Shown in pieces: positions 5,255 to 63,362 of a DNA stretch of 64,000 nt. The notes under the pieces were generated by a model that was not told the DNA's origin, ran no database searches, and saw nothing but the letters and a program-made list of their open reading frames with translations. Each line of letters starts with the position of its first letter. Positions within the stretch are counted from its first letter, which is position 1. The stretch covers positions 118,299 to 182,298 of the forward strand of contig CAZTKG010000002.1 of assembly GCA_964613815.1 (NCBI GenBank), written 5' to 3'. The position numbers and the translations under genes are program-made. The stretch comes from an uncultured Gammaproteobacteria bacterium. GTDB taxonomy: Bacteria; Patescibacteriota; Patescibacteriia; UBA9934.

Positions 5255-5271
5255 AATTTGTACATACAATC

Positions 5272-23043: not shown

Positions 23044-23168
23044 TGATGGCCTCGAATGAGCGTGGAGACCATACCTTGAATATTGAGATTTGTGAATGGT
23101 TATGATACTGTGGGCTCACAATTTGATCCCACCTAACCCTAGTAAATGGGTTTGTGGGCGTTTTTCTT

Positions 23169-25247
23169 ATGACATTTAAACTTCACTCACATTACGAACC
23201 TGCTGGTGATCAACCGAAAGCGATTGATCAGCTTTGTGATGGGCTGGAAAAGGGCATGAAGGGGCAGACGCTTTTGGGGGTGACGGGGTCTGGGAAGACG
23301 TTTACGATGGCGAATGTGATTGAGCGGGTGCAGCGGCCGACGCTTGTGATTGCGCATAACAAGACGCTTGCGGCGCAGCTTTGTAGTGAGTTTCGGTCGT
23401 TTTTTCCGGAGAATGCGGTGGAATATTTTGTTTCTTATTATGATTATTATCAGCCTGAGGCGTATATGCCTCGGTCGGATACGTATATTGAAAAAGAGGC
23501 GCAGGTGAATGAGGAGATTGATCGGTTGCGGCATAGTGCGACGAAATCACTTTTGTCGCGACGGGATGTGATCGTGGTTGCTTCGGTGAGTTGTATTTAT
23601 GGACTTGGGTCGCCGGATGAGTATAAAGATGTGGTTTTGGAGTTGAAGGTTGGGCAGGATATTGATCGTGCGGCGTTTTTGCGGCAGCTTGTTGGGATGT
23701 ATTACGAACGTACGACGACAGTTGTGGAGCGTGGGAAGTTTCGGGCGCTTGGGGATGTGGTGGAGGTGCAGCCGGCGAGTGAGAAGAAGTCGATGTATCG
23801 TGTGACCATGGACGGTGGGAAGGTGCATGAGATTTTTTTGCTTGATCCGTTGACGCGGAAGATTAAGGATCGGTTGCAGAATTTGTGGTTGTTTCCGAAT
23901 AAGCATTATGTGGTTGGGTCTGATCGGGTGGAGAATGCGCTTTCGCGGATTCGGCATGAGCTTGATGAGCGGTTGGAAGAGCTTGATGGGCAGGGGAAGG
24001 TTTTGGAGCATGCGCGGCTCAAACAGCGGACGAAGTATGACATTGAGATGATTAAGAATTTAGGGTATTGCAATGGGATTGAGAATTATTCTCGGCATTT
24101 TGAGGGGCGGAAGGCTGGGGAACCGGCGTCTACATTGCTTAGTTATTTTCCAGATGATTTTTTGACGGTTATTGATGAGAGTCATGTGACGGTTTCGCAG
24201 GTTCGGGCGATGTATGCAGGGGATCAGGCGCGGAAGAAGACGCTTATTGATCATGGGTTTCGATTGCCGAGTGCGGCGGATAATCGGCCGCTTCAGTTTG
24301 AGGAATTTGAGGAGCAGGTTGGGCAGACGGTTTATGTGAGTGCGACGCCGGGGAATTATGAGGGGGATCATTCTGATCAGGTGGTTGAGCAGATTGTGCG
24401 GCCGACGGGGCTTGTGGACCCGCGGATTGTGATTCGGCCGGTTACGGAGGGTGTGAAGCCTGGCGGGGCGAAAGGGATTGATTTTGTTGAGATGTTGGGG
24501 GTTGAAATTGATGCGGAGGTTCCGGCATTGGGGCAGGTTGATGATCTTATTGAGAGGGTGAAGGTTGTTATTGAAAATAAGGGGCGCAGTTTGGTGACGA
24601 CGCTTACGAAGAAAATGGCGGAGGATTTGACGCAGTTTTTGGTTGAGGAGGGGATGAAGGTTCAGTATTTACATAGTGGGGTGCAGACGTTTGAGCGGAT
24701 TGAGGTTTTGAGTAAGTTGCGGGAAGGAGTGTATGACATTGTGGTTGGGGTGAATTTGCTTCGAGAGGGGCTTGACTTGCCAGAGGTGCAGCTTGTGGCG
24801 ATTTTGGATGCGGATAAAGAGGGGTTTTTGCGGAGTGAGACGTCGCTTGTGCAGACGATTGGGCGGGCGGCTCGGAATGCGGATGGGTATGTGGTGTTGT
24901 ATGCAGATAAGATGACGGGGAGTATGAAGCGTGCGCTTGTGGAGACGAAGCGGCGACGGGATATTCAGGAAGCTTATAACGAAGAACACGGGATTACGCC
25001 GACGACGATTGTGAAAAAAGTGGATGATATTCGGGACATGATTTCGATGCCGGAATCGACGGATGATGTGCTCGATGTGGAGCTTACTGCGAGTGTCGCG
25101 GAGCTTGATGAGGCGATTTTTGATAAGACAGATGAAATGAAGAAGGCGGCGGCGAATTTGTTGTTTGAGACGGCTGCGCGGTTGCGGGATGAGATTGAGC
25201 TTTTGAAGAAAGAGCGGGCGGGGAGGATTGAGGATGGGGGTGCATAG
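23169..25247 (+). CDS. uvrB: Excinuclease ABC subunit B
   Basis: Walker A GVTGSGKT, the helicase motifs and the UvrB-type C-terminus. ATG 23169 gives MTFKLHS, the canonical UvrB N-terminus. Confidence 0.9.
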   Translation: MTFKLHSHYEPAGDQPKAIDQLCDGLEKGMKGQTLLGVTGSGKTFTMANVIERVQRPTLVIAHNKTLAAQLCSEFRSFFPENAVEYFVSYYDYYQPEAYMPRSDTYIEKEAQVNEEIDRLRHSATKSLLSRRDVIVVASVSCIYGLGSPDEYKDVVLELKVGQDIDRAAFLRQLVGMYYERTTTVVERGKFRALGDVVEVQPASEKKSMYRVTMDGGKVHEIFLLDPLTRKIKDRLQNLWLFPNKHYVVGSDRVENALSRIRHELDERLEELDGQGKVLEHARLKQRTKYDIEMIKNLGYCNGIENYSRHFEGRKAGEPASTLLSYFPDDFLTVIDESHVTVSQVRAMYAGDQARKKTLIDHGFRLPSAADNRPLQFEEFEEQVGQTVYVSATPGNYEGDHSDQVVEQIVRPTGLVDPRIVIRPVTEGVKPGGAKGIDFVEMLGVEIDAEVPALGQVDDLIERVKVVIENKGRSLVTTLTKKMAEDLTQFLVEEGMKVQYLHSGVQTFERIEVLSKLREGVYDIVVGVNLLREGLDLPEVQLVAILDADKEGFLRSETSLVQTIGRAARNADGYVVLYADKMTGSMKRALVETKRRRDIQEAYNEEHGITPTTIVKKVDDIRDMISMPESTDDVLDVELTASVAELDEAIFDKTDEMKKAAANLLFETAARLRDEIELLKKERAGRIEDGGA

Positions 25248-25251
25248 GGGT

Positions 25252-25332
25252 TCCCATCTCGACCGAGTGTAATGAGTGGAGAGATCTGGTTTAACAGGGC
25301 TGCAGGATCTCTCCGCGTTGGTCGAGATGGGA
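25252..25332. repeat. RPE-like palindromic element (full, 81 bp with internal insertion) immediately after uvrB stop
   Basis: TCCCATCTCGACCGAGTGTAATGAGTGGAGAGATCTGG...GGATCTCTCCGCGTTGGTCGAGATGGGA, followed by a T-run, so it is a likely terminator. Confidence 0.8.
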
Positions 25333-25346
25333 TGGAAGAGGTTTTT

Positions 25347-25382
25347 GATTCCGAATGGATCCTTCGACCCTCAGGATGACAC
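25347..25382. promoter_or_regulatory. Conserved motif GATTCCGAATGGATCCTTCGAC-N7-GGATGACA (copy 2 of 3)
   Basis: It matches 5649-5685 and 37723-37758. Confidence 0.4.
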
Positions 25383-25785
25383 ACGGGGGAAGTGAAAGCC
25401 GCTCCCCGAACGAGGTCGGGGGGCGGCTAGGTGCAACACTGTTACGCCCGGTCGGTGAGCATCAATCTTGTGGACTGCGCAGGGTACCTGGGGTGCGGCG
25501 ATCGCGGTCCAGGATGGCGTCTACGTGATTTCCTCGAATGAGGTCCGATGGGTGGGCAGTACTGTTTGGTCGGTGGGGCGTATTGTGAGAACCCGCCACG
25601 GCCGAGGATGTACGTTTTCATCTTGCGTTCCGAATGATTCCGCATGCCGGTGGTGTGCTGCGCTTTACTGTGCGATGCTGAGCGATGCAAACGTTCGTGA
25701 ATCACGAGAAGCATGCAAGGTGATGTGATAGTGATTGCCTTTGTATTATAAGAAGGTTTGAGAGGAAATTGATAATTGATTGTGT

Positions 25786-28341
25786 ATGAAAGATAAAATT
25801 ACGATTAAAGGTGCGCGAGAGCATAACCTCAAAAATATTGATTTGGCGTTGCCGCGTAATAAATTGATTTGTTTTACGGGACTTTCTGGAAGCGGGAAGT
25901 CTAGTTTGGCGTTTGATACGATTTTTGCGGAAGGGCAGCGGCGGTATATTGAGAGTTTGAGTGCGTATGCGCGGCAGTTTTTGGGGCAGATGCAGAAGCC
26001 GGATGTGGATGAGATTGATGGGTTGAGTCCGGCGATTAGCATCGATCAAAAAGCGCATAGTCGGAATCCACGGTCGATTGTGGCGACGGTGACGGAGATT
26101 TATGATTATTTGCGTGTGTTGTATGCGCGTGTTGGAAAGGCGGTTTGCCCGACGTGTCGGAGTAGTATTGAGCGGATGGGGGTTGATGGGATTGTGGTGG
26201 CTGCTTTGCGGGATCTTGGTGAGCACCCGCGGCAGAAAGGAAGAGATCTCCCGACTTCGCTCGAGATGGGAAAATTATCAGGAGGTGAAGTTCAGATTTT
26301 GGCTCCGGTGATTCGAGGGCGGAAGGGGGAGTATTATCAGCTTTTGTATGATCTTTATAATCAGGGGTTTGCGAAAGTGCGCGTTGACGGGAAGGAGCAT
26401 CGGCTTAGTGAGAAAATTAAGTTATCGCGTTATAAGAAGCATGATATTGAAGTGATTATTGATACGATTCCGGCGACGGCATTGAAGGATCCGAGTCAGG
26501 ACGATCGGCAGCGGATTAATGAGGCGGTGGAGCGAGCAATTGAGGTTGGGGAGGATTTGGCGCTTGTGGTGTTTCCGGATGGGCATGAGCGGTTGTTTAG
26601 TACGAAGTTTAGTTGTGTGGATTGTGGGTTTTCGTTTCCGGAGATTGAGCCTCGGCTGTTTAGTTTTAATAGTCCTTATGGAGCATGTCAGCCTTGTGGG
26701 GGGCTTGGGACGACGGAGCTTTTTAGTGAAGATTTGTGTGAGGTTTGTGAAGGGGCTCGGCTTCGGCCTGAGGGGCGGAGTGTTTTGGTTGGAGGGAAGT
26801 CGATTGTGGAAGCCGTTGGGATGACGATTGGGAATAGTGCGCAATGGTTTTTGGAGCTTGAGCTGGATGAGCGGCAGATGGAGATTGCGGGAGCGGCGTT
26901 GAATGAGATTCAGAATCGTCTTTCTTTTCTTGATGATGTTGGGCTTGATTATTTGACGCTTGATCGGCGGGCGGGGACGCTCAGTGGTGGAGAGGCGCAG
27001 CGGATTCGGCTTGCGAGTCAGGTAGGATCAAGACTTGTGGGGGCGCTTTATGTTCTTGATGAACCTACAATTGGTCTCCATCAGCGGGACAATGAGCAGT
27101 TGATTCGGACTTTGGAAGATCTTCGAGATTTGGGGAATACGGTGATTGTGGTTGAGCATGATGAGGATACGATTCGGCGGTCGGATTTTATGGTTGAGAT
27201 TGGGCCCGGGGCTGGTGTGCATGGAGGGAATGTGATTGCGGCGGGGGAGGTGCCGGCGATTTTTGAGGATAAGAATTCTCGGACGGCGGCGTATATGCGA
27301 GGGGATGAGGGGATTGAGGTGCCGAAGAAGCGACGGAAGGTTGGGCGGGATAAGATTAAGGTTGTGGGGGCTGAGGCGCATAATTTGAAGAAGTTGAATG
27401 TGGAGTTTCCGCTTCGGCGGTTTGTGTGTGTGACGGGGGTGAGTGGGAGTGGGAAGTCAACGCTTGTGCATGATGTGATGTATAGCGCGCTTGCGAAAAA
27501 ATTGAATGGGCGGAAAAAGAAGCCTGGGAAGCATAAGGCGGTGATGGGGGTTGAGTATATTGATAAGATTGTTTTGATTAATCAGTCGGCGATTGGGCGG
27601 ACGAGTCGGTCGAATCCTGCGACGTATACCGGGGCTTGGGGGCCGATTCGGGAGTTGTTTGCGGCAACGGAAGAGGCACGGTTTCGTGGGTATAAGCCTG
27701 GGCGGTTTAGTTTTAATGTGCCCGGAGGTCGATGTGATAATTGTGATGGGCATGGGAAGATTGCGATTGAGATGCATTTTTTGCCGACGGTGCATGTGGA
27801 GTGTGATGTGTGTAAGGGGAAGCGATTTAGGCGGGAGACGCTTGAGGTTGTTTGGAATGAAAAGAATATTTGGCAGGTGCTTGATATGACGGTTGAGGAG
27901 GGGGCGGTGTTTTTTAAGAATGTTCCTACGGTGTTTGAGAAGTTGAAGACAATGAATGAGGTTGGGCTTGGGTATTTGAAGTTGGGACAGAGTGCGACGA
28001 CGCTCAGTGGAGGAGAGGCGCAGCGGGTGAAGCTCGCCACGGAACTATCGAAACGACAGACGGGACGGACGTTGTATATTTTGGATGAGCCGACGACGGG
28101 GTTGCATTTTGAAGACATTAAGAAGTTGCTTCAGGTGTTGCATCGGTTGGTGAGTAAGGGGAATTCTGTGGTTGTGATTGAGCATAATTTGGATGTGATT
28201 AAGACGGCGGATTGGATTATTGATTTGGGGCCTGATGGTGGGGAGCGTGGAGGGAAGCTTGTGATTGCGGGGACGCCGGAGGAGGTTGCGCGTTGTGCAC
28301 AGAGTGAGACGGGGAAATATTTGAAGCATTATGTTGATTGA
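25786..28341 (+). CDS. uvrA: Excinuclease ABC subunit A
   Basis: Two ABC ATPase modules (GLSGSGKSSL, GVSGSGKSTL; LSGGEAQR twice) with zinc-finger Cys clusters. It contains an in-frame RPE half-copy at 26239-26272. Confidence 0.9.
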   Translation: MKDKITIKGAREHNLKNIDLALPRNKLICFTGLSGSGKSSLAFDTIFAEGQRRYIESLSAYARQFLGQMQKPDVDEIDGLSPAISIDQKAHSRNPRSIVATVTEIYDYLRVLYARVGKAVCPTCRSSIERMGVDGIVVAALRDLGEHPRQKGRDLPTSLEMGKLSGGEVQILAPVIRGRKGEYYQLLYDLYNQGFAKVRVDGKEHRLSEKIKLSRYKKHDIEVIIDTIPATALKDPSQDDRQRINEAVERAIEVGEDLALVVFPDGHERLFSTKFSCVDCGFSFPEIEPRLFSFNSPYGACQPCGGLGTTELFSEDLCEVCEGARLRPEGRSVLVGGKSIVEAVGMTIGNSAQWFLELELDERQMEIAGAALNEIQNRLSFLDDVGLDYLTLDRRAGTLSGGEAQRIRLASQVGSRLVGALYVLDEPTIGLHQRDNEQLIRTLEDLRDLGNTVIVVEHDEDTIRRSDFMVEIGPGAGVHGGNVIAAGEVPAIFEDKNSRTAAYMRGDEGIEVPKKRRKVGRDKIKVVGAEAHNLKKLNVEFPLRRFVCVTGVSGSGKSTLVHDVMYSALAKKLNGRKKKPGKHKAVMGVEYIDKIVLINQSAIGRTSRSNPATYTGAWGPIRELFAATEEARFRGYKPGRFSFNVPGGRCDNCDGHGKIAIEMHFLPTVHVECDVCKGKRFRRETLEVVWNEKNIWQVLDMTVEEGAVFFKNVPTVFEKLKTMNEVGLGYLKLGQSATTLSGGEAQRVKLATELSKRQTGRTLYILDEPTTGLHFEDIKKLLQVLHRLVSKGNSVVVIEHNLDVIKTADWIIDLGPDGGERGGKLVIAGTPEEVARCAQSETGKYLKHYVD
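26239..26272. repeat. RPE-like element (right arm) in frame inside uvrA
   Basis: GGAAGAGATCTCCCGACTTCGCTCGAGATGGGA is translated as RDLPTSLEMG, immediately before the conserved ILAPVIRGRKGE segment. Confidence 0.75.
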
Positions 28342-28531: not shown

Positions 28532-29881
28532 ATGGCGATTCCGGATTTTGTTCAAATACAGAGAGATGTTTTGCCCGATGATCCTGGGGTGTATTTTTAT
28601 TATGATTGTGATGGGGAGCTTTTGTATATTGGGAAGGCGACGAGTTTGAAGAAGCGGGTGGGGTCTTATTTTAATAAGGCGCATGATCGGCGGATTGCGG
28701 AATTGGTTGGGAAGATTCGGCGGATTGATTATATTGAAACGAAGACGTCTGTGGAGGCTTTGGTGCTTGAGGCGAATCAGATTAATGTGTTGCAGCCGCC
28801 ATATAATATTTTGAATAAGGATGATAAGAGTTTTTTGTATCTTTTGGTTACTAGTACGGATTTTCCTCGGCCGGTTTTGATTCGTGGGCATGAGCTTGCG
28901 GGGGCTGGGGTCGCGCCGTTTGCGGGGGCGATTCCGGAGAAGTTGGGAGGGAAATATCGGGCGATGTTTGGGCCGTATACGAGTTCTTATAGTTTGAAGA
29001 AGGCGATGGAGTTGATTCGGCGGGCGATTCCTTGGAGTGTTTGTCGGCCGCCTGAGGAGACAGGGAGTGATCGGTTGTGTTTTGATGCGCAGATTGGGAA
29101 GTGTCCGGGGGTTTGTGGGGGGAAGATATCAAAACAGCGCTATCGACGGATGATGAAGCGGTTTGAGATGTTTTTTGGGGGGAAGACAGCGCGGCTTTTG
29201 GGGCGGATGAAGAAGGAGATGGAGAAGGCGGCGAAGGAGATGCGGTTTGAGGAGGCGGCGGAGATTCGGAATGCGCTGTTTTCGCTTGAGCATATTCGGG
29301 ATATTGCGATGATTACGAAGGAGGATGTGGAGTTGCCGATGACGAGGGTGGATGAGGAGATGTATGTGGATTTGGAAGGGTGGATTGAGGCGTATGATAT
29401 TAGTAATATTTCTGGGACGTCGGCGGTTGGGAGTATGGTGGTGTTTTTTGAGGGGCGGCCTTTGAAGGCGGCTTATCGGAAGTTTAAGATTAAGACGGTG
29501 ATTGGGGCGGATGATGTTGGGTGTATGGAGGAGGTGATGCGGCGGCGGTTAAAGCGGGCGTTGCGATATCCGAAAGCTTGGGGGTTGCCGGAGATTATGG
29601 TGATTGATGGAGGAGAGGGGCAGGTGAATCGGGTGCGGGAGGTGTTTGCGGAGATGGGGGTGGATGTGCCGCTGATTGGGATTGCGAAGGGGTATGATCG
29701 GAAGCAAGATCGGCTCGTCTTTGATCGGGGGGATGTGCGAGTGACGAGTGTGGCGGAGCGGGGGAAGGAGGTGTTTTGTAAGGCGCGGGATGAGGCGCAT
29801 CGGTTTGCGGTTAAGTATCATAAGGAGGTGCGGAGTCGGGCGAGTGGGATTCGGCGGGGGAAGAAAAAAACCTCCGGATGA
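28532..29881 (+). CDS. uvrC: Excinuclease ABC subunit C (short form, 449 aa)
   Basis: GIY-YIG N-terminus (GVYFYYDCDGELLYIGKATSLKKRV), UvrBC-interaction region and an RNase H-like endonuclease domain. It appears to lack the C-terminal (HhH)2 tail. Confidence 0.8.
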   Translation: MAIPDFVQIQRDVLPDDPGVYFYYDCDGELLYIGKATSLKKRVGSYFNKAHDRRIAELVGKIRRIDYIETKTSVEALVLEANQINVLQPPYNILNKDDKSFLYLLVTSTDFPRPVLIRGHELAGAGVAPFAGAIPEKLGGKYRAMFGPYTSSYSLKKAMELIRRAIPWSVCRPPEETGSDRLCFDAQIGKCPGVCGGKISKQRYRRMMKRFEMFFGGKTARLLGRMKKEMEKAAKEMRFEEAAEIRNALFSLEHIRDIAMITKEDVELPMTRVDEEMYVDLEGWIEAYDISNISGTSAVGSMVVFFEGRPLKAAYRKFKIKTVIGADDVGCMEEVMRRRLKRALRYPKAWGLPEIMVIDGGEGQVNRVREVFAEMGVDVPLIGIAKGYDRKQDRLVFDRGDVRVTSVAERGKEVFCKARDEAHRFAVKYHKEVRSRASGIRRGKKKTSG

Positions 29882-32050: not shown

Positions 32051-32118
32051 TATTCGTCGTTCTCTCGGATTTTCCGGGGGATTTTTTATTTGGATGGGCG
32101 CGCGCTTTGTGTTCTGTG

Positions 32119-32231
32119 TCATCTCGACCTTGCTGGAGAGATCTCATCCTGCCAGCACGGCTGATATTTACCGACGTCGGTGATCATTGCTCGCGGTACC
32201 GAAGAGGGTCTCTCCAGCAAGGTCGAGATGA
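32119..32231. repeat. MITE-like composite RPE-family element: 23-bp perfect terminal inverted repeats (GTCATCTCGACCTTGCTGGAGAG) flanking a ~65-bp core
   Basis: The arms are exact reverse complements and share the CATCTCGACC/GGTCGAGATG ends with the RPE family. It is intergenic, upstream of mraZ. Confidence 0.75.
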
Positions 32232-32528
32232 CAACGGGGGAGTGGGGGATGGTTTTTTATATATATCTGACGTTCTGTGGATAGTTGTGGTTGCTGGTGG
32301 GGGCGTGGTGGGTTATAGTGGGGGCAACGAGGCACAAAGTGGGGCGCCCCGCAATTTTCGTTTGCGGAGCTCGAGTCGTAAGACTCCATGTTCGGGAAAC
32401 TTCCCCCTGTCAGGAATTGTTGTAACGCTTACTCTCGGTGAGCATGCGCCAACGATTCGTGATAGGAATCGATCAACCGCGTGTTCTTTCCTTTGCGCGA
32501 CGTTAGCCGTTAAGGCGACGTTAAAACA

Positions 32529-33826: not shown

Positions 33827-34147
33827 ATGCGAGAAAGATTGCAAACAATTCAACTGTTTTTGCAAGATCGGAGCTGGATTCAGCTTGCGGTTTTGGCTGT
33901 GACGATTGTGATTGGCGTGCTTTACATCTGGCAGGTTAATCTGAGCGCGACGCGAGGGTTTGCGATGCGGGATTTGGATCGTCAGGTGGAAGATATGGGG
34001 ATTCAGAATGAGCGAAATCTTTTGGAGGTTGCGAGGTTGAGATCGGTAGACAGTGTGAGTAAGCGGGTTCAGATGCTTGGGCTTGTGGAGGTGGATGTGG
34101 CGGATTATATTGATGCGGGAGATAGCGCGGTGGCGGTGAATAAATAA
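33827..34147 (+). CDS. FtsL-like cell division protein (septum formation initiator family)
   Basis: Small bitopic protein (TM helix LAVLAVTIVIGVLYIW followed by a coiled coil) at the canonical position after rsmH. Confidence 0.5.
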   Translation: MRERLQTIQLFLQDRSWIQLAVLAVTIVIGVLYIWQVNLSATRGFAMRDLDRQVEDMGIQNERNLLEVARLRSVDSVSKRVQMLGLVEVDVADYIDAGDSAVAVNK

Positions 34148-34155: not shown

Positions 34156-34186
34156 GAAGAGATCTCTCCACAGCGGTCGAGATGGC
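34156..34186. repeat. RPE-like element, right-arm half copy, intergenic
   Basis: GGAAGAGATCTCTCCACAGCGGTCGAGATGG. Confidence 0.7.
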
Positions 34187-36762: not shown

Positions 36763-36790
36763 GAGGCGACCTGAGAGGGTCGTCTTTTTT
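36763..36790 (+). terminator. Rho-independent terminator GGCGACC-TGAGAG-GGTCGTC-TTTTTT
   Basis: Sequence inspection. Confidence 0.7.
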
Positions 36791-36794: not shown

Positions 36795-36864
36795 CCCATC
36801 TCGAGCGCAGTCGCGAGATCTGATGGCGGCAGGGTTGCAAGATCTCTCCACAAGGTCGAGATGG
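36795..36864. repeat. RPE-like palindromic element (full copy), intergenic upstream of nth
   Basis: TCCCATCTCGAGCGCAGTCGCGAGATCTGATGGCGGCAGGGTTGCAAGATCTCTCCACAAGGTCGAGATGG. Confidence 0.8.
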
Positions 36865-36887: not shown

Positions 36888-37640
36888 ATGACAAAGCGCG
36901 AAGAAAACATTAGACAAATTTTAGCGGTTTTGAAAAAGCGTTGGCCTACGCCTGGAGCGATGGAGATTGGGAATGCGTATATGGCGGTGGTGGCAGTTGC
37001 GCTTAGTGCTCGGACGCGGGATGAGCAGGTTTTGAAGTTGTTGCCGCGGTTTTTTGGGGTGTATCCGACACCTTTGGCGTTATCAAAAGCGACGCCTGAG
37101 GAGATTGAGGGGTACATTAACACGATCGGGATGTATCGGCAGAAGGCGCGGAATTTGCAGAAGATGGCGGTGCGGGTTTGTGAAGTTTATGATGGGAAGA
37201 TTCCTGGTAATATGGAGGATTTGACATCGCTTGCGGGGGTTGGGCGGAAGACAGCGAGTGTGATTTTGCCGTATATTTTTGGGAAGCCGGCGATTGCGGT
37301 GGATACGCATGTGCATCGGGTGACGAATCGGCTTGGATGGGTGAAGACGCAAATGCCGGCGGAGACGGAGAAGGCGCTTTTGAAGATTGTGCCGGAGGAT
37401 GTGCATCCGACGGTGAATCGGGTGTTTGTGAAGCATGGGCGGTATGTCTGTATTTCGAAGCCTCGATGTTGGGCGTGTCCGGTGCGGGATATGTGTCCGT
37501 TTGCGGAGAAGAATTTGGTGGAGCCGAAGGATGCTGAGGAGATTTTGGTGGATATTGAGCGGAGGGAGGAGGTGGTTCAGCGGCTTCGGGAGGGGGTTGA
37601 GGTCCCATCTCGACCGAATGAAGTGAGTGGAGAGATCTGA
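36888..37640 (+). CDS. nth: Endonuclease III (DNA-(apurinic or apyrimidinic site) lyase)
   Basis: HhH-GPD motif (LTSLAGVGRKTASVIL), catalytic Asp (AVDTHVHRV) and the 4Fe-4S cluster C-x6-C-x2-C-x5-C. The last 12 codons come from an RPE element. Confidence 0.85.
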   Translation: MTKREENIRQILAVLKKRWPTPGAMEIGNAYMAVVAVALSARTRDEQVLKLLPRFFGVYPTPLALSKATPEEIEGYINTIGMYRQKARNLQKMAVRVCEVYDGKIPGNMEDLTSLAGVGRKTASVILPYIFGKPAIAVDTHVHRVTNRLGWVKTQMPAETEKALLKIVPEDVHPTVNRVFVKHGRYVCISKPRCWACPVRDMCPFAEKNLVEPKDAEEILVDIERREEVVQRLREGVEVPSRPNEVSGEI

Positions 37641-37707
37641 TTATGGTGGGGATGAAGGGGTGGACGACGGGAGGATTGCAAGATCTCTCCACAAGGTCGA
37701 GATGGGG
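37603..37707. repeat. RPE-like palindromic element (full, 105 bp); left arm supplies the C-terminus and stop of nth, right arm + T-run acts as terminator
   Basis: TCCCATCTCGACCGAATGAAGTGAGTGGAGAGATCTGA...CAAGATCTCTCCACAAGGTCGAGATGGGGA followed by GGGGTTTTTTT. Confidence 0.8.
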
Positions 37708-37722
37708 ATGAGGGGTTTTTTT

Positions 37723-37758
37723 ATTTCGAATAGATCCTTCACTTTGTTCTGGATGACA
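37723..37758. promoter_or_regulatory. Conserved motif TATTTCGAATAGATCCTTCAC-N8-GGATGACA (copy 3 of 3), followed by TATACT -10-like box at 37779
   Basis: It matches the copies at 5649 and 25347. Confidence 0.4.
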
Positions 37759-37790: not shown

Positions 37791-37889
37791 ATGAAAAAAC
37801 AAACAGGGTTTCAGAAATTTGTTGCGGTCGTGGCGCTTCTGGTGATGGTTAGTATGGTTGTGATGACGTTTGCGGTTGGATTGTTTTGA
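37791..37889 (+). CDS. Possible 32-aa hydrophobic micropeptide (MKKQTGFQKFVAVVALLVMVSMVVMTFAVGLF) directly upstream of recJ
   Basis: The ATG follows a TATACT box. It has a single TM helix, and its stop overlaps the recJ start region. Confidence 0.2.
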   Translation: MKKQTGFQKFVAVVALLVMVSMVVMTFAVGLF

Positions 37890-37893
37890 TATG

Positions 37894-39591
37894 GCAATAT
37901 GGACGGTGGCGGAGAAGGTTTCGGAGGATTTAGTTGATCAGCTTTTGCATAATCGTGGGGTTGCGGCAGATGATCGGGCGGCGTTTATGGCGCCTGATTA
38001 TGCGACTGGGACGCACGATCCTTTTTTATTTACGCGGATGGAAGAGGCGGCGCGGCGGGTTTTTGAGGCGCTTAGGAATAAGGAGCGGATTGTGATTCAT
38101 GGGGATTATGATGCGGATGGGGTTTGTGGGGCGAGTGTGCTTTATTTGGCGCTTTTGGAGATTCGGGATCGTATTCCGCTCGATGGGCCGTTTGAGGGTT
38201 TGATTGAGGTGTTTTTGCCGGATCGGGAAGAGGATGGGTATGGGATTGCGGAGCATACGATTCGGCGATTTGGGGAGGAGAAGCGGGATTTGGTGATTAC
38301 GGTGGATTGCGGGATTTCTAATGCGGATGAGTTGGATTTGGCGGGAGAGCTTGGGATGGATGTGATTGTTTGTGATCATCATCAGCTTGGAGAACGACTT
38401 CCTGAGAAGGCGATGCTTATTCATCCGTTGGTGCCTGGAGAGGATTATCCGAATAAGACGCTTTGTGGGACGGGAGTGGCGTTTAAGCTTGTGAGTGGGG
38501 TGTTTGAGATTGCGCGACGGGAGGGGATTGATTTTGTTGTTGGGCATGAGAAATGGTATTTGGATTTTGTAGCGGTGGCGACTGTGACGGATGTGATGCC
38601 GCTTGTGGGGGAGAATCGGGTTTTGGAGAAATATGGACTTGTGGTTTTGAATAAGACGCAGAGGCCAGGACTTTTGGAGATTTTGCGGACAGCGAAAGTT
38701 GAGCCTGGGGGGATAGATACGCAAACGATTGGGTTTCAGATTGGGCCGCGTTTGAATGCTGCGGGGCGGCTTGGGTCGGCGAAGATGGCGTTTTTGACGT
38801 TGGTTGCGGAGGATCATGAGGAGGCGGCTGTGCATGCGGATGCTTTGGATGAGATTAATAAGGAGCGGCGGCGGATTAGTGATTCGATGTTTCGGCAGGC
38901 ACGGAATATTGTGAAGGCGCGTGAGGATCAGAAGTCGGTGACGGTGGTTTGGGATCATGATTGGAAGCCTGGTGTTGTGGGGATTATTGCGGGGAAACTT
39001 GTGCGGGAGTTTGGGGCGCCGGCGTTTGTGCTTACGCGAAGTGGGGATCATTTTGTGGGATCTGGTCGGAGTATGGGAGGAATGCATCTTGTGGAGGCGA
39101 TGCGGTCGTGTGGGGATATTTTTATGAAGGCTGGTGGGCATCCGCAGGCTTGTGGGTTGTCTATTGCTGATGAAGATCAGCTGCGGCTGTTTGCTGATCG
39201 GGTAGACGCGTTTGGGAGGGAGTATTTTGGGGAGATTGGGCCTGTGGATGAGCTTTTGATTGATGCGGAGGTGCGTGTGCAGGATTTGGGATGGGACTTG
39301 CATGGGGATGTGATGAGTTTGGCGCCGTTTGGGCAAGGGAATCGGTTACCGAAGTTTTTGGTGCGAGGGGTGCAGGTGGTGGAATCTCGAAAGATTGGGG
39401 CAACGGAGCGGCATTTGAAAATGGCGATTCGAGATGATGTTGGGTCTCGACTTGAAATGATTGGGTTTGGGTTTGGTTCGCGGTATGATGAAGCGAAGCC
39501 TGGGGCTGTGCTTGATATGGTGATGGAACTTGATGTGAATGAATGGAATGGGAGGCGGAGTTTGCAGGGAAGAATTATTGATTTTCGATAA
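37894..39591 (+). CDS. recJ: Single-stranded-DNA-specific exonuclease RecJ
   Basis: DHH motifs (HGDYDADG, VITVDCG, DHH at VIVCDHHQ) and the DHHA1 domain (GGHPQACG). TTG 37870 is an alternative start. Confidence 0.85.
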   Translation, partial: AIWTVAEKVSEDLVDQLLHNRGVAADDRAAFMAPDYATGTHDPFLFTRMEEAARRVFEALRNKERIVIHGDYDADGVCGASVLYLALLEIRDRIPLDGPFEGLIEVFLPDREEDGYGIAEHTIRRFGEEKRDLVITVDCGISNADELDLAGELGMDVIVCDHHQLGERLPEKAMLIHPLVPGEDYPNKTLCGTGVAFKLVSGVFEIARREGIDFVVGHEKWYLDFVAVATVTDVMPLVGENRVLEKYGLVVLNKTQRPGLLEILRTAKVEPGGIDTQTIGFQIGPRLNAAGRLGSAKMAFLTLVAEDHEEAAVHADALDEINKERRRISDSMFRQARNIVKAREDQKSVTVVWDHDWKPGVVGIIAGKLVREFGAPAFVLTRSGDHFVGSGRSMGGMHLVEAMRSCGDIFMKAGGHPQACGLSIADEDQLRLFADRVDAFGREYFGEIGPVDELLIDAEVRVQDLGWDLHGDVMSLAPFGQGNRLPKFLVRGVQVVESRKIGATERHLKMAIRDDVGSRLEMIGFGFGSRYDEAKPGAVLDMVMELDVNEWNGRRSLQGRIIDFR

Positions 39592-48606: not shown

Positions 48607-48624
48607 TTCTTAAGAGTGATTTTA

Positions 48625-48668
48625 GCTTGATACAAAAGTGGTCCGTACGGACCACTTTTGTATCAAGC
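48625..48668. repeat. 44-bp perfect palindrome GCTTGATACAAAAGTGGTCCGTAC|GTACGGACCACTTTTGTATCAAGC
   Basis: Exact self-complementarity. It shares the 16-bp core TGGTCCGTACGGACCA with the palindrome at 48767. Confidence 0.8.
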
Positions 48669-48766
48669 AAGTGAGTTGGTCTGGTCGATGATTCGTCCAT
48701 TTTTTGTTTACATGGTTTTATTTGTTTTCTTCTTGATGAAAAAGATGAACATGTATAGCGCGTTTT

Positions 48767-48810
48767 GCCTGTATTAATAATGGTCCGTACGGACCATTAT
48801 TAATACAGGC
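48767..48810. repeat. 44-bp perfect palindrome GCCTGTATTAATAATGGTCCGTAC|GTACGGACCATTATTAATACAGGC
   Basis: Exact self-complementarity. It has the same core as 48625 but different arms. Confidence 0.8.
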
Positions 48811-49974: not shown

Positions 49975-50065
49975 AGAGGGGTTGTCCACAATGAGGGATC
50001 TGATGATGTGATTTTATCACAGCCTCAAGATGATGTGGGTTCGGTGTTTGATATACTTTATATAT

Positions 50066-50254
50066 ATGAAAAAGAAAAAGGTTGAGGATACATTTGGTTA
50101 TAAGGGGTGGATGAATTCGGATAATATTTGGAAGCGGATGTTTGGGGTGTTTGGGTATTATACGCTTGCGAATATTGTGATTACGCTTGGGATGCTTTTG
50201 GTGTTTGGAGTGTTTGTGTTTTTAGGGTTTTTGGTGACTTGGTTGGTTCGGTAG
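50066..50254 (+). CDS. Small membrane protein (62 aa)
   Basis: Lys-rich N-terminus then two TM helices. Followed by a bidirectional terminator. Confidence 0.3.
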   Translation: MKKKKVEDTFGYKGWMNSDNIWKRMFGVFGYYTLANIVITLGMLLVFGVFVFLGFLVTWLVR

Positions 50255-50270
50255 ATTTGATTTTTATTTG

Positions 50271-50297
50271 GTTTCAAAAAAGAGCTTCAAAGCTCTT
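50271..50297. terminator. Bidirectional terminator AAAAAAGAGCTTCAAAGCTCTTTTTTG
   Basis: Perfect hairpin flanked by A- and T-runs. It marks the left edge of the AT-rich island. Confidence 0.75.
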
Positions 50298-50602
50298 TTT
50301 TGTGCTGCCGAGATCAGCTATGTGCCGGGAGGGTCGAGTTGAGCTCGATTGCCTCGCTCAGCAGTTTTCGGTTGGAAGATCTGCGAAGCTCAGCTTCGCT
50401 AGACACCGATCTTCAAACCGAGCTGAGCTCGGTGGCGGACCGGACGGGTTGAGTAACAAGGTTTGGGAGGTTTTGTAAGGGCTTTTGGGATATTATTTCT
50501 AGACGAATTTCAGGCACTCGGGTCGGGGTCTTTTTTGGGAACTTGAGACAAAATGAGACAGTAGTTAAAAAAATGGGGGGCTAAATCATAAAATCACGGC
50601 TT

Positions 50603-51109
50603 ATGAAAATTCCCAAAGACCTAGTTCAAGAACTTAAGGATATTCATCAAGAAAAGACAGGTAAAACGTTGAGTAATGAAGACGCGCTTGAGGGAGCAAA
50701 CAACTTAACCAATTTCGCCAAGCTTCTACTGGACTGTGCTGAGCGCGATCGTAAACGTAAACTGCAGCTCAAAGAGTCGCCAAAGGGTTTCCATCTTCCC
50801 GAAGGAGAACGTTACAATTGTTTCATTTGCCACAATGTAGTTTCAGGAGAATCAAGTTGGTACAGCAAGCACGGGATCACGTGTCTTATTTGCAAGGAAG
50901 CTTTGAGGAAGCGAGTCATTCCAGTGAGTGTCATGCGCAATCGTGATAGCTGGTTAGCGATGTGGGAAGTGAAGAAGCTTCTTGTACTACACCACTCCAC
51001 CATACTAAAAATGATCCGCACTGGTAAACTAAAGGCGCGGATCATTAAAAATGGAGAGCGTGATTACTTTTGGGTGTTTTTGAAGAAAGAGAATCGTCTA
51101 CTCACCTAA
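50603..51109 (+). CDS. Zn-ribbon (CxxC...CxxC) protein with C-terminal HTH-like segment (possible excisionase/MerR-like regulator)
   Basis: CFICHN...CLICKE zinc ribbon. [17 protein letters not shown] resembles a MerR/Xis-type HTH. The gene is AT-rich. Confidence 0.4.
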
Positions 51110-52306
51110 GTCGGCGTCACCATCTGAAAGTTCTTCAAACTTAGCTGTCATTGTAGGATTGCCTCGTGTCAATTTTTTAATCGTCAGATCTTCCGCCTTA
51201 TTATTGGCGAGACGCAGGTTGTTTTCAGAAGACAGGAGGGCCGCCTTAGTCTTTTGAAGATGATTGATTGTTTTATCGATTTCATCAATGGCAGTTTTGA
51301 ATCTACGACTCGCAAGATCGTAGTTTTTTGCGAACCCTTCCTTAAAGACGTTTATCCGATCTTCAAAATTTGTAATGTCCACATTTTGGCTTCGCATCAA
51401 AGCAAGTTCTGCTTTGTATTCGAGAGAGTTCATTGCGGCGTTGCGGAGCAGTGTAATCATCGGAATAAAGAATTGCGGACGAACTACGTACATCTTAGGG
51501 TATTTATGAGACACGTCGACAATACCTGTGTTATACAGTTCATTTTCGGTCTCCAAGAGCGTTACCAGAACAGCATATTCACAATTTTTCTCTGTGCGGT
51601 CTTTATCAAGCTCACGTAAAAAGTCTTCGTTCTTTTTCTTTGTGGCAGTTTCATCGCCTTCATTTTTCATTTCGAACATGATAGAAGTAATTTCATTCCC
51701 AGCTTCGTCGGTTTCCCGATAAATGTAATCGCCCTTACTTCCGGTTTTGGAATCATTATCCTTTTCAAAATATGCATTTTGAAAAGCAGTTGCACGGAGT
51801 TTGTTGAACTCAGTTTCACAATGCTGTTCCAGGGTCTCCCCAAGCATTTTGGTGCTGAGTTTTAATTTCATGTCCTTGTAACGCTCAATCATTTCATCCT
51901 TTGACTTTAATTCATTTTCATACTTTTCCTTCATAGAAACTTCGCGCAGCTCCATTTCATGCTCCTTGCTTTGCAACTTATTCTTGAGATGGTCTCGTTC
52001 TTTTTCGATGGAATTAACTGCCTCTGTTACGGCGAGTTTTTTCTCAAGAGCCTCACTCTCCATTTTTGACTTGAGAGAAGCTATCTCGGAGTCTTTTTTT
52101 ACAAGGTCTTCCTGCATTGAATTCTTTAGATTGGCCTCAGCGAGTTTCACGGCATCTTCTTGCTGTCTCTCGGCTAAAGATAGGCGATCATGCAGTTCTT
52201 TTTCAAACTGATCGTCACGAACTTGTTTGAGAATATCCGCGAACCCAGCTTCATCTACTTTGAAAGTCTTTTTACAGTGCGGGCAATTGATGGTTTGGTC
52301 GGTCAT
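51098..52306 (-). CDS. DUF2130-like protein: N-terminal Zn-ribbon (CPHC), long coiled coil, C-terminal globular domain
   Basis: [19 protein letters not shown]... then a ~200-aa coiled coil and a C-terminal KGDYIYRE...[12 protein letters not shown] segment, consistent with the DUF2130 architecture. Confidence 0.5.
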
Positions 52307-52399
52307 ACAGGGTTTGGTTTATTGGTTAGAAACTTGACGCATCTCTTGTTTATGGTAATATCACGTTCAGATATAAGTGTCAAACTCTGAATAAGAAAT

Positions 52400-53281
52400 A
52401 TGCAATCAATACCCTCTCAGGATCAAGCTTTGCTCAATCTGGGCAAAATCAACGGCTGGATTGACTCCTCACCTGTCGCAACCGTCATGCGCCATTCTAT
52501 GGCAAATTTAGCATTTGAGCTTACAAAAGCAGATCTTCAAGTAGAAATCGACATTGGTAACCTGCTTTCAATCTCTGATTCTCCAATTACATCAAAACGA
52601 TTCAAGAAAGTCTTTCTCGATCCTCTTGTGGGAAATGATTATGCTGTGGTCTTACAAAAAGTCCATCAACAAATATTCGCACAGAGTGAAGGGTATCAAT
52701 TTCAACCAGGGCAATTGCGATCGGAGAATACCCCTGGACAAATACAGGGCATTATTAACAAAATTGATGAGAGCAGTGATTCTCCATTCGCAAAGGCCCT
52801 AGATCTTCATAAGAATTTTCTAGACCTAAAACCATTTAATAACGGAAATGAAATCATTGCAGCTCTGCTACCAAATATATACCTAACTCATCGAGGTGTA
52901 ATGCTTGCGCCCATACTAAGCTTTCATAATTTCCCTGCACAAGGCGATGATGCAGATGAGTGGTTTCAAGACCAAACAAATCTTATCATCACTCTCTTGC
53001 ACGAAATTCGAGATTTGGAGCAAGAATACAAAAGTCGAACTAATGGATTTGCAACACAGCGTAAAAAACTTTTCTCAGGACTTTTGCCTTTTATGATGAA
53101 ACGTCCGAAGTTTACGATTCAAGAATTACTGGATGAATATGGACAAAGTACATATCAAACCATTAATGAACTATTCAAAGATCTGGTAAAGCTCAATGTG
53201 CTAAAGGAGCTTACGGGAAATGCGCGGTTCAGAGTCTTTCACCTTCACGAATATTCAAATCTTTTCAAAACAATCGTATGA
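52400..53281 (+). CDS. Fic/DOC-family-like protein with degenerate active-site motif (KPFNNGNE in place of HPFx[DE]GNGR)
   Basis: Fido-like length and helical pattern, with the motif-like segment LDLKPFNNGNEIIAALL. It sits just upstream of hsdM, a position frequently occupied by Fic genes in Type I R-M loci. Confidence 0.45.
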   Translation: MQSIPSQDQALLNLGKINGWIDSSPVATVMRHSMANLAFELTKADLQVEIDIGNLLSISDSPITSKRFKKVFLDPLVGNDYAVVLQKVHQQIFAQSEGYQFQPGQLRSENTPGQIQGIINKIDESSDSPFAKALDLHKNFLDLKPFNNGNEIIAALLPNIYLTHRGVMLAPILSFHNFPAQGDDADEWFQDQTNLIITLLHEIRDLEQEYKSRTNGFATQRKKLFSGLLPFMMKRPKFTIQELLDEYGQSTYQTINELFKDLVKLNVLKELTGNARFRVFHLHEYSNLFKTIV

Positions 53282-55317
53282 CAAATTTCAAAGATAAGAC
53301 TCAGCTCATTTGGAGTATTGCAGATATTCTCCGTGGTGGATGGAAGCAACATGAGTATCAAGATGTCATTCTTCCTCTTGTTGTTATCAAGCGTTTAGAT
53401 CTCCTCCTCTCCTCAACAAAGAAGTCTGTGCTCGAGCAATATAACGAGCTAAGTGGAGAGATTAATGACCTTGATCCAATTCTCAAGGCAACATCTGGAG
53501 TCGGTTTTTATAATATCTCTGAATATGACTTTGAGTCACTTCTTGAAGACCCTGCTGGCATTGCACAGAACTTTAGAAATTATTTAAACAAGTTTAGTGA
53601 AAATATTACTGACATTATTGAGAAGTTTGATTTTGATCGTCAGCTAGATCGTCTTGATGGAGGAAATCTCTTGTATGAAATTATAAAGGTCATAAATAAA
53701 GTTGACCTTCATCCGGATCGTGTAGACAATCATGAGATGGGGTCCATCTTTGAGGAGCTTATTAGAAAATTTGCGGAACAATCGAATGAGACCGCTGGGG
53801 AGCATTACACGCCACGCGATGTGATTAAAGTCATGGTCGAAGTTCTCTTCGCACCAGACCAAAAAAAACTCCAAAAAGAACATCTTATTAAAACCGTCTA
53901 CGATTGTGCTTGTGGTACTGGTGGGATGCTCTCTGTTGCAAAGGATCACATAAAAGATGAGATTAAAAGTGATGCAGACATCTACCTTTACGGACAAGAG
54001 CTCAACCCTGTCACCTACGCTATGTGTAAGGCGGACATGCTGATTAAGGGTGAGGACCCGAATAATATTAAAGGTGGAGAAAAAGATCATTCACTGGCAA
54101 GCACACTTGCAAATGATCAGTTTTTTGGAAAGGACTTTGACTATATGCTTACAAACCCTCCTTTTGGAGTGGATTGGAAAAAAGACAAGCAAACTGTTGA
54201 GCGAGAGGCTGAACGTGGATTTGCTGGGCGTTTTGGTGCGGGGACACCGCGTGTATCAGATGGACAATTGCTTTTTCTACAACATCTTATTTCAAAAATG
54301 AGACCAGAACATGATGGTGGGTCGCGCTTAGGAATTGTTTTTAATGGCTCACCACTATTTACTGGTGATGCAGGAAGCGGAGAGAGTGAAATTCGTAGAT
54401 GGATTTTAGAGAACGATTGGCTTGAAACAATAATCGCGCTTCCTGATCAGCTATTTTTCAACACAGGTATCCCAACATACCTTTGGTTTATTACGAACCG
54501 AAAATCAGATGAGCGTAAAGGTAAGGTGCAGATTGTAGACGCTCGAGGCTTCTGTAAAAAAATACGAAAGAGTCTCGGAAACAAACGTAATGAGATTACG
54601 GAAGATGATCGGAAAAAGATCATTGAACTTTATTCGTCATTTGAAGAAAATGAACACTCAAAGATTTTCAACAATGAAGACTTTGGATACCGACAGATCA
54701 CCGTGGAACGACCTCTTCGATTGAACTTTCAGGTAAATGAGGAGCGGTTGAAAAATCTGACCTTGGATAAATTTCTCACCACTGGTGAAAAAAAAGCAAC
54801 AAAATTACAACTACAGCGAGCTGCTATTTGTCGAATATTAACCAATGCAGTTTTACCGAAGATGTCAAAAAAACTGTACAAAAATCGTCAGGAATTTATC
54901 AGTGACCTGACCGATACATACAACTCCATTGGTGATCTAGATACTCCACTACCACAGCCGATATTAAAAGCAGTGATTGAATCACTTTCAGAACAGGATG
55001 ATACGGCAGATATTTGTATGGACAGCAAGGGCAACTCTGAAGCACATGCAAGCTTACGTGACACAGAAAATATTCCACTCGATCAAAATATTCAGGAGTA
55101 TTTCAATAAAGAAGTAAAGCCTTATGTTACGGATGCTTGGATCAATGAAAGTAAAAAAGATCACAAGGATAAAAAGATCGGGAAAGTTGGATATGAGATT
55201 CCTGTGACAAGATTTTTTTACAAATACAATACCCCAAGATCATTGAAAGATATTGAAATCGATATTCAAAAAACAGAGCAAGAGCTTGTTGATCTTCTTA
55301 AACAGATGTCTGTATGA
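53278..55317 (+). CDS. hsdM: Type I restriction-modification system, methyltransferase (M) subunit
   Basis: N-terminal HsdM domain (LIWSIADILRG), AdoMet motif I (DCACGTGGML) and motif IV NPPFG (LTNPPFGVDW). Confidence 0.9.
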   Translation: MTNFKDKTQLIWSIADILRGGWKQHEYQDVILPLVVIKRLDLLLSSTKKSVLEQYNELSGEINDLDPILKATSGVGFYNISEYDFESLLEDPAGIAQNFRNYLNKFSENITDIIEKFDFDRQLDRLDGGNLLYEIIKVINKVDLHPDRVDNHEMGSIFEELIRKFAEQSNETAGEHYTPRDVIKVMVEVLFAPDQKKLQKEHLIKTVYDCACGTGGMLSVAKDHIKDEIKSDADIYLYGQELNPVTYAMCKADMLIKGEDPNNIKGGEKDHSLASTLANDQFFGKDFDYMLTNPPFGVDWKKDKQTVEREAERGFAGRFGAGTPRVSDGQLLFLQHLISKMRPEHDGGSRLGIVFNGSPLFTGDAGSGESEIRRWILENDWLETIIALPDQLFFNTGIPTYLWFITNRKSDERKGKVQIVDARGFCKKIRKSLGNKRNEITEDDRKKIIELYSSFEENEHSKIFNNEDFGYRQITVERPLRLNFQVNEERLKNLTLDKFLTTGEKKATKLQLQRAAICRILTNAVLPKMSKKLYKNRQEFISDLTDTYNSIGDLDTPLPQPILKAVIESLSEQDDTADICMDSKGNSEAHASLRDTENIPLDQNIQEYFNKEVKPYVTDAWINESKKDHKDKKIGKVGYEIPVTRFFYKYNTPRSLKDIEIDIQKTEQELVDLLKQMSV

Positions 55318-61272: not shown

Positions 61273-61281
61273 CCGCTGTCT

Positions 61282-61956
61282 ATGTTGAAAAGTACCGAAC
61301 ACATCCTCAGGGAAGCATCTGAAAATTTTGCCAAATCCATAGCACAAATACAGGAGCCTTTTAAGAAATTTGAAAGAACCATTGCATCATTTACAGAACC
61401 TATTCGAAAATTTGAGGAGCAAATAAAGCAACAACAAGATGCATTTGCTCAAATGAATAAATTTTTGGCCGCTGTTGATCTACCCAAAATAGTCGCTAGC
61501 GACATATTAGATGCATGGGCTGTTCAAGGCGTAGATATTGATGAATATGTTGAAAACTCTGCTGAGCTTGCAGAAGATTTGAGTTACGATTTTGCTGAAT
61601 CTCTTGAGGAGGTCATTGAAAAGCATTCAAAAGAAACTGGCACCACTCAAATTCGACTTACCTCCAATGGAAGAATGTTTCATATTGATTCCCCTGATAA
61701 GGACCATGAACTATCTGAACAAATGGAAAAATTCTTTCGTGCACTGAAGAAAGGGTTTACTGCAACAGACAAACTTGTCACTGTGAGCGGCTATGCGACT
61801 GAGCGCAGTCTACGAACTGCGGCCAATAAGTTGAATCGTTTAGGTCGCGGAAAATTAGGTTTGAGCGTTCCGATTGCCGTTGGTAAGCGAGGAAAGGGCT
61901 ACAGATTGGGGAGGCGTATTCATGTTCATAGGTTACCAAACAAGCTCGATAGATAG
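61282..61956 (+). CDS. Hypothetical protein (224 aa) downstream of hsdR
   Basis: Clean ORF with a basic C-terminal tail (GRGKLGLSVPIAVGKRGKGYRLGRR). Followed by a strong terminator. Confidence 0.45.
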   Translation: MLKSTEHILREASENFAKSIAQIQEPFKKFERTIASFTEPIRKFEEQIKQQQDAFAQMNKFLAAVDLPKIVASDILDAWAVQGVDIDEYVENSAELAEDLSYDFAESLEEVIEKHSKETGTTQIRLTSNGRMFHIDSPDKDHELSEQMEKFFRALKKGFTATDKLVTVSGYATERSLRTAANKLNRLGRGKLGLSVPIAVGKRGKGYRLGRRIHVHRLPNKLDR

Positions 61957-61972
61957 ATACAGTGGATAACTA

Positions 61973-63361: not shown

Positions 63362-63362
63362 T

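Follow-up and report, generated by a model that had tools for sequence, protein, structure and literature searches.

Does the repeat element at the 3' end of nth serve the gene as a ready-made ending, or is it an insertion that the encoded protein tolerates? The locus lies in a 64,000-nucleotide (nt) stretch of contig CAZTKG010000002.1 from an uncultured bacterium (the window, meaning the whole stretch analysed), in which nth (36888-37640, + strand), the gene for endonuclease III, runs into a copy of a hairpin repeat. The original prediction held that such copies are co-opted as 3'-end modules that give the coding tail, the stop codon and the terminator, and named nth, a DUF362-family gene (17424-18395, + strand) and uvrB (23154-25247, + strand) as cases. 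The features are probably copies of a hairpin repeat resembling the repetitive extragenic palindromes (REPs), and the tails are probably tolerated insertions, not adopted 3'-end modules. The homologs of nth and the DUF362 gene point to a bacterium of the Candidate Phyla Radiation (CPR) near Candidatus Uhrbacteria, and gene identities in the window were confirmed by Pfam.

The gene nth (Pfam HhH-GPD and HHH; also taken from the list of open reading frames (ORFs) and the ortholog alignment) ends in a full doublet of the repeat (copy 10, 37604-37707), with a whole fold of -45.9 kcal/mol. Its last 11-12 codons, (V)PSRPNEVSGEI, are encoded in the left arm (37604-37638), which has a CCC head, an ATCTC/GAGAT stem, a tandem G.A and a 13-nt loop. 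The TGA of nth (37638-37640) straddles the junction between this arm and a variable linker (37639-37680); the left arm gives its T and the first two bases of the linker complete it. The right arm (37681-37707) is the inverted unit AGATCTCTCCACAAGGTCGAGATGGGG. The tail and stop codon of nth thus come from the repeat, as had been predicted. Every reading frame meets a stop in the long-loop left arm (two TGA in the loop and ATCTGA at the junction), so an ORF that enters it ends quickly.

None of the 27 nth orthologs in the alignment has the tail; all of them end 2-3 residues past the conserved LRxxAV helix. The nth of the closest relative (84% identical) ends in RERVDGDLS and is followed by unrelated sequence with its own hairpin and T-run and no repeat copy; nucleotide homology between the window and this relative stops at 37580. 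In a second relative the locus is compact and element-free, with iPGM, nth and the next gene abutting or overlapping. When the insert is taken as 37603-37706, the restored frame reads GTT GAG GGA TGA and the protein ends in LREGVEG, which is ortholog-like. With these boundaries, which were chosen by eye, the native nth stop would be the TGA at 37709-37711 and the uninterrupted allele would read ...GTTGAGGGATGA....

The DUF362 gene (Pfam DUF362; ortholog alignment) has a repeat-encoded insertion close to its C-terminus. Its reading frame continues across a compact 48-nt doublet (copy 4, 18336-18383), which adds exactly 16 codons in frame (AISTGMERSLDAARDG), and this tail is missing in 21 of 21 orthologs. 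Without the element the protein would end in WRNA-REN, within the range of ortholog tails. The stop codon (TGA, 18393-18395) is 10 nt past the last conserved base of the element and therefore lies outside it. The gene had been described as ending inside an element; the read-through of copy 4 is confirmed, but the position given for the stop is not. The copy is an in-frame insertion that probably keeps the native stop, again with boundaries set by eye.

The comparison of C-termini that had been proposed as a check came out as expected in both families. It supports the view that the C-terminal tails of nth and the DUF362 protein are element-derived and lineage-specific, as judged from the alignments. 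An identical full-length nth protein is also found on a separate JGI contig, and an identical full-length DUF362 protein on 6 contigs from four sources. The tailed proteins are present in these further assemblies and are therefore not assembly errors.

The existence of a repeat family in the window is clear from word counts far above chance. A 25-mer that covers the right arm with its loop (AGATCTCTCCACAAGGTCGAGATGG) occurs three times (2313, 36840 and 37681) against 0 expected, and the 9-mer TCGAGATGG occurs 18 times against 1.08 expected. Every site was read, which gave 10 copies, all on the + strand and within 1.6-37.7 kb of the window. Six of them are inverted doublets and the other four single units. 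One unit measures about 25-35 nt, with a short head, a 5-bp stem (ATCTC/GAGAT) and a C right after the stem. The head is CCC in most copies and GTC in one copy and in most relatives. Within the stem are a tandem G.A (on the other strand a TC/TC internal loop), 1-2 more pairs and the loop. The stem begins AT...AT and covers 8-9 positions, of which positions 6-7 are the tandem G.A (ATCTC-GA-C(C)/(G)G-GA-GAGAT). Loops have 4-6 nt in right-arm units and 5-13 nt in left-arm units, and the tail is C(T), not CCA. In a doublet, the left arm is CCCATCTCGACC-(loop)-GGAGAGATCT and the right arm is AGATCTCTCC-(loop)-GGTCGAGATGGG. The linker varies from 0 to 63 nt and the inverted pair is able to fold as one long hairpin; in compact doublets the arms are fused through the palindrome AGATCT.

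The element has no counterpart in Rfam. The search found only tRNA-Gln in the whole window at the gathering score, with no match to the repeat, and five related loci gave only 16S rRNA and chance matches at E<=1, which places the element in no known RNA family. A literature search with the sequence string of the element returned only shRNA and primer noise.

By comparison with other loci and with published repeats, the unit is a member of a cross-phylum superfamily that includes the CGTC-tagged REPs, Rickettsia RPE-4/6 and Neisseria dRS3/NTS (alias SRM). The CGTC-tagged REPs were defined in 2013, with RPE-4/6 and dRS3 among them, as repeats that lack a dedicated transposase and lie near ORF 3' ends (PMC3733652). 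The criteria are an unpaired CGTC tag (with TGTC and CCTC variants), an 8-9 bp stem starting from A-T/T-A, a 4-5 nt loop and a short unpaired tail; about 10% of these REPs are at ORF ends, where the end of the REP can provide the stop, and copies within genes are found preferentially in uvrA, uvrB and other repair genes (PMC3733652). The window repeats are likewise short hairpins with a head and an A-T/T-A stem start, mostly as inverted dimers with variable spacers, and they too lie just downstream of ORFs, with ends that sometimes give stops and with in-frame copies in uvrA and elsewhere. In the window this arrangement takes the form of six dimers with spacers of 0-63 nt, 3'-end placement and occasional in-frame copies. 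The differences lie in the tag, the stem and the host. Copy 7 has TGTC on both arms (32116-32119; reverse complement at 32229-32232), whereas the other copies have TCCC or GCC. The perfect stem of 8-9 bp is replaced in the window by 5 bp, a tandem G.A and 1-2 bp, and one arm has a 13-nt loop. Patescibacteria, to which the Uhrbacteria-like host belongs, are not among the phyla listed in that report.

Five copies touch repair genes, although such genes occupy only about 17% of the 50 kb that bear the repeat. This apparent excess echoes the 2013 report (PMC3733652), but the sample is too small for any conclusion.

The second known system is formed by the oriented dRS3 (NTS) and related SRM hairpins, which flank genes for single-domain GIY-YIG proteins of the Ssn family (cd10448; Chenal 2025, PMC11893778). 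Ssn proteins bind and cut SRM hairpins solely as single-stranded DNA (ssDNA), and in Neisseria they restrain transformation (PMC11893778). Like these hairpins, the window repeats are oriented, 20-50 nt long and present in many copies, with a C right after the palindrome. The link between Ssn/GIY-YIG genes and hairpin repeats was already published in 2025; the main text of that paper makes no mention of CPR bacteria or Anaerococcus.

Relatives of the window's unit show the same link. A Balneolaceae array has a small GIY-YIG gene among repeat units, and its homologs in a Pirellulales locus and two Uhrbacteria lie between an upstream left arm and a downstream right arm. GIY-YIG genes are flanked by arms at loci L033, L042, L077 and L051, and CTC- or TTC-type arms bracket such genes at L033, L042, L116, L148 and L154. 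In one bracketed case both arms have diverged together. The stop codon of the GIY-YIG gene often abuts the right arm (T-GAGAT...). The association was counted in 80 metagenome loci encoding GIY-YIG homologs, 77 of which were counted for flanks. A hairpin was defined as CAT-xxx...x'x'x'-ATC within 130 nt upstream, or its inverted form downstream. Hairpins of this kind are present upstream in 43 of 77 loci, downstream in 47 and on both sides in 30, compared with 2.3%, 4% and 0.1% in shuffles. Within 100 nt of the gene there are 5.6 hairpins per kb, versus 0.15-0.5 per kb beyond 500 nt, with a 2:1 orientation preference. These figures (one side 56-61%, both sides 39%) agree with those of published Ssn loci, of which 71% have at least one SRM and 42% have SRMs on both sides (PMC11893778). 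On the window itself the loose hairpin expression is noisy on the G/T-rich strand (47 matches versus 13 expected), and it was used only for the GIY-YIG loci, with controls. Loci of the GIY-YIG protein P0292 are uninformative on mobility because they are all the same locus in different samples.

The flanked GIY-YIG proteins match only GIY-YIG (PF01541) in Pfam. For two of them, NCBIfam gives a single sub-threshold match to TIGR01453 (group I intron endonuclease; 22.7 bits versus a cut-off of 56), and the nearest solved structure to a flanked protein is the UPF0213 protein 1ZG2 (E = 0.05). The GIY-YIG protein of L159, which has canonical NTS-like flanks, is 51% identical to an Uhrbacteria protein flanked by the unit type of the window. 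L185 and L186, which are on one 338-kb contig, have two GIY-YIG genes, each within arrays of hairpin doublets. The arrays enlarge two intergenic gaps of a branched-chain ABC-transporter operon to 0.6-0.8 kb, and the GIY-YIG gene lies between complete doublets, not inside one.

The unit is widespread. With one genome taken for each species, a scan for a degenerate right-arm pattern gave at least 102 loci, and the matches listed include two other Uhrbacteria, other Patescibacteria, Doudnabacteria, many Anaerococcus species (isolates included), Balneolaceae, Riflebacteria, Chloroflexota and Pirellulales. The upstream partner arms are often CCATTTCGA...GAGAAATCT or CCATCCCGA...GAGGGATCT. The stem triplet co-varies (CTC/GAG, TGC/GCA, TCT/AGA, CCT/AGG, TTC/GAA, TCC/GGA and CCC/GGG), with the complement always present. 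Each arm is its own hairpin, since the compensatory changes occur within one arm; half of the gene-flanking arm pairs are hetero-pairs. In Anaerococcus (Firmicutes) the units are in AT-rich intergenic arrays, and the 25-nt right arm is identical to that of the window at L008, L010, L018, L023, L028, L029, L036, L058, L079 and L095. No Ssn-like gene was seen in the approximately 60 Anaerococcus loci fetched. It is conceivable, though doubtful, that the CCC-headed ATCTC/GAGAT tandem-G.A hairpins are recognition sites of an uncharacterised Ssn specificity class that is shared with Anaerococcus by horizontal transfer, and that the clustering of copies at excision-repair genes (xseA, uvrB, uvrA and nth) reflects a functional link to ssDNA metabolism and not chance. 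The sharing across phyla is suggested because the 25-nt right arm is identical in a CPR bacterium and Anaerococcus.

The insertions are best read as a known kind of selfish or domesticated hairpin repeat. Copies are found mainly just past genes or terminators and occasionally inside them. Copy 10 would have landed about two codons before the native nth stop, so that the frame enters the left arm and ends after 12 codons, and copy 4 is an in-frame insertion of 48 nt four codons before the DUF362 stop, taken as native. On this view the tails arose incidentally when the repeat inserted and are tolerated by the proteins; they would not be adopted 3'-end modules.

Several points weigh against this reading. 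The published SRM pattern (HGTCWYN(0-2)YYVSBRHN(0-5)WNVSBRGN(0-2)RNCYNB) has 0 matches on either strand of the window, while a canonical NTS control matches, and the head is CCC, not GTC, in all copies but one. No Ssn-like gene is present within the 64 kb by tblastn and a small hidden Markov model. The native stops proposed for nth (TGA 37709-37711) and the DUF362 gene (TGA 18393-18395) rest on insertion boundaries drawn by eye. To our knowledge, published work has not settled how repeats of this kind spread. Selection for a function at the RNA level is another possible cause of the preference for gene ends. The window elements are regarded as a divergent subfamily (CCC head, 5-bp stem and tandem G.A) because the SRM pattern is unmatched and because of the 51% identity at L159. 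The pattern also finds SRMs at only 2 of the 80 related GIY-YIG loci.

An RNA-level role in addition to insertion is a tentative possibility. The hairpins may protect 3' ends from exonucleases or stall ribosomes less than about 15 nt from the stop, effects reported of E. coli REPs, and selection for such a role would hold copies at gene ends. By position, seven of the 10 copies are intergenic or at 3' ends, and the remainder are in uvrA, a C39-like gene and the 5' end of xseA. Four of 10 are across, or within about 10 nt of, a stop codon, which by a rough estimate applies to about 5% of positions by chance. The copies are enriched at gene 3' ends, and the nth stop codon is inside the hairpin of -46 kcal/mol. 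E. coli REPs are likewise extragenic palindromes within a few nt of stop codons, and by analogy with them strong transcribed hairpins at stops may affect mRNA stability or translation termination; an influence of REPs near stop codons on translation and mRNA stability has been summarised (PMC12306157), and the placement of REPs at ORF ends is also documented (PMC3733652). The asymmetric copies all have the same orientation and are co-directional with the genes. However, nearly all genes in window positions 1 to about 50 kb are on the + strand, and the GC skew of this strand is extreme there (+0.3 to +0.5 in 2-kb windows), so orientation does not tell effects of transcription from those of the replication strand. 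The substrate of Ssn proteins is ssDNA, not RNA, and the elements are missing at the same sites in relatives with no sign of conservation, both of which speak against the role.

The original prediction, in which nth, uvrB and the DUF362 gene owe coding tail, stop and intrinsic terminator to co-opted modules, is improbable. The proximity of four copies to a stop codon (overlapping it or starting no more than 10 nt past it) agrees with this idea, as do the stability of the doublet hairpins (-46 to -75 kcal/mol), the T-runs 8-20 nt downstream of four copies and the supply of the nth stop at the arm/linker junction. An intrinsic terminator was taken as a G+C-rich stem-loop followed by a U-tract within 0-2 nt. 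At nth the stem base is at 37707 and the T-run begins 8 nt past it, at 37716; at uvrB the distance is 9 nt. The spacer is G-rich in both cases. A terminator scan of these 40 kb found many ordinary terminators and yet flagged 0 of the 10 repeat copies. For uvrB (Pfam UvrB, UvrB_inter and UVR; stop TAG at 25245-25247), the full doublet of copy 5 (25253-25331; fold -47.9 kcal/mol, z = -4.9) begins 5 nt past the stop, as had been noted, but termination by this copy is not borne out with the T-run 9 nt off the stem base.

Three further copies are located just downstream of independent canonical terminators, which already serve the upstream gene. Copy 3 (compact doublet, 4285-4340) is 35 nt downstream of the terminator at 4234-4249. 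Copy 7 (32118-32232), a doublet with canonical GTCAT heads, lies between the terminator at 32061-32081 and mraZ; its arms are fully complementary, with a stem of about 30 bp in the minimum free energy fold and a structured centre of about 53 nt (-75.2 kcal/mol, z = -7.6). Copy 9 (doublet, 36795-36864) lies between the terminator at 36763-36786 and the nth start, 8 nt from the former and 24 nt from the latter. A T-run is lacking at the compact copies at 4285 and 18336. Of all copies, only copy 8 (single unit, 34156-34185), which starts 9 nt past the stop of the ORF 33827-34147, can form a hybrid hairpin that abuts a U-run, in a predicted fold where it pairs with downstream GUGGAGGG-U6.

The T-run read as the terminator of nth belongs to a second repeated module, a CCT-type unit (stem ATCCT/AGGAT, with an ATGAC head). 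The module after nth (37712-37758, + strand) consists of the T-run and ATTTCGAATAGATCCTTC...CTGGATGACA. A copy with a T-run directly follows copy 5 (25340-25381, + strand) and the third is at 5641-5685 (+ strand); the three copies were compared in one alignment. The module has the form GGTTTTTGATTCCGAATGGATCCTTCG...CTCAGGATGACA or GGTTTTTGATTCCGAATGGATCCTTC...GGATGACA. The module is a diverged unit of the same superfamily as the main repeat. It directly follows a CTC-type doublet in two of the three cases.

The terminator role of the hairpins is not supported by this analysis of predicted structures, because the geometry is non-canonical, the scan flags no copy, separate terminators are present and the T-run is in the second module. 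The wider idea of adopted 3'-end modules also fails in that the DUF362 stop is outside the element and further copies are in frame inside uvrA and the C39-like protein.

Classical miniature inverted-repeat transposable elements, i.e. terminal inverted repeats (TIRs) of a DDE-type insertion sequence mobilised in trans, are highly improbable. The outer inverted repeats (CCCATCTCGAC...GTCGAGATGGG) and variable centres resemble such elements, but none of the six doublets has a target-site duplication, single units occur often, every arm forms a hairpin by itself with a co-varying stem, and the genes enclosed elsewhere are GIY-YIG nucleases, not transposases. A candidate duplication, TGAGG, is on both sides of the nth copy and was rejected, being absent at the other copies. 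A RAYT/REPtron arrangement was also considered and rejected; the ORFs between inverted Anaerococcus copies (L010 and L018) are not transposases. E. coli REPs have a GTAG head and RAYT tyrosine transposases and show no sequence relation to the window repeats, in which no GTAG head is found. Rickettsia RPE-1 and Neisseria Correia/NEMIS elements resemble the window repeats as insertions read as protein, in lineage-specific segments or ORF ends (PMC3733652), but they are different sequence families, and in Correia elements TIRs and target duplications are present, along with IHF and promoter motifs. That the tails are ancestral coding sequence or the insertions assembly artefacts is almost certainly wrong, given the 27 nth and 21 DUF362 orthologs that lack them and the identical full-length proteins from further assemblies.

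Copies 1 and 6, in frame within genes, match what is usual when insertions of REP/RPE-type repeats are tolerated (PMC3733652). Copy 1 (single unit, 1647-1676) is read in frame as GDLSTSLEMG and falls in the acidic linker of a C39-like peptidase with a membrane anchor. Copy 6 (single unit, 26240-26270) is in frame inside uvrA (25780-28341; GRDLPTSLEMG), where about 19 residues around QKGRDLPTSLEMG form an insertion in the alignment against solved UvrA structures. Copy 2 (2309-2380) is a single unit with a 21-nt tandem duplication of its 3' end, at the 5' end or leader of xseA (2216-3637). It is placed in an N-terminal extension or a leader because there are two plausible starts (ATG 2270 and TTG 2399). 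The duplication, at 2324-2380, is GGTTCGAGATGGGGAGGGGGC in two to three copies and would translate as GRDGEGAVRDGEGAVRDE; comparable duplications of the 3' end of the unit are found at L038, L047 and L093. After copy 3, the first ATG of an amino-acid-kinase ORF (4336) is inside the repeat GAGATGG. A second ATG (4354), 18 nt further, has a purine-rich AAGGA upstream in repeat-flanking sequence, and the true start may be either.

The remaining repair genes identified by Pfam are uvrC (28532-29881) and recJ (37870-39591). The uvrB-uvrA gap of about 400 nt (25385-25780) has no convincing ORF and is less skewed in composition; the region 25370-25800 gave no Rfam match and its fold is no better than shuffles (z = -1.5). 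Two small repeat pairs, 5220-5259 with 5585-5624 and 48621-48659 with 48763-48801, are both unrelated to the main family. One is GCCCCCTAGTACGCAT(C/T)TGCGGAACGGGGG, a hairpin with a T-rich tail, and the other contains the palindrome GGTCCGTACGGACC. The GC skew collapses past about 50 kb of the window. The block at 50000-64000 is skew-free and low in GC (0.38-0.42), has no repeat copies, and carries a Fic-domain gene (52400-53281) and the type I restriction-modification genes HsdM (53278-55317) and HsdR (58315-61272). The block has the look of an acquired island.

The case does not reveal a novel type of gene-end module. When this genome is annotated, the repeat-encoded C-termini of the nth and DUF362 proteins, like the repeat-encoded internal segments of UvrA and the C39-like protein, should not be taken for conserved protein features. 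A modest new result is the extension of the Ssn/SRM (CGTC-REP) superfamily to CPR bacteria and Anaerococcus. A further new result is that the published SRM pattern is too narrow, with 2 of 80 loci found versus about 45 of 77 by the looser structural definition. This matters for cataloguing Ssn specificities as ssDNA tools.

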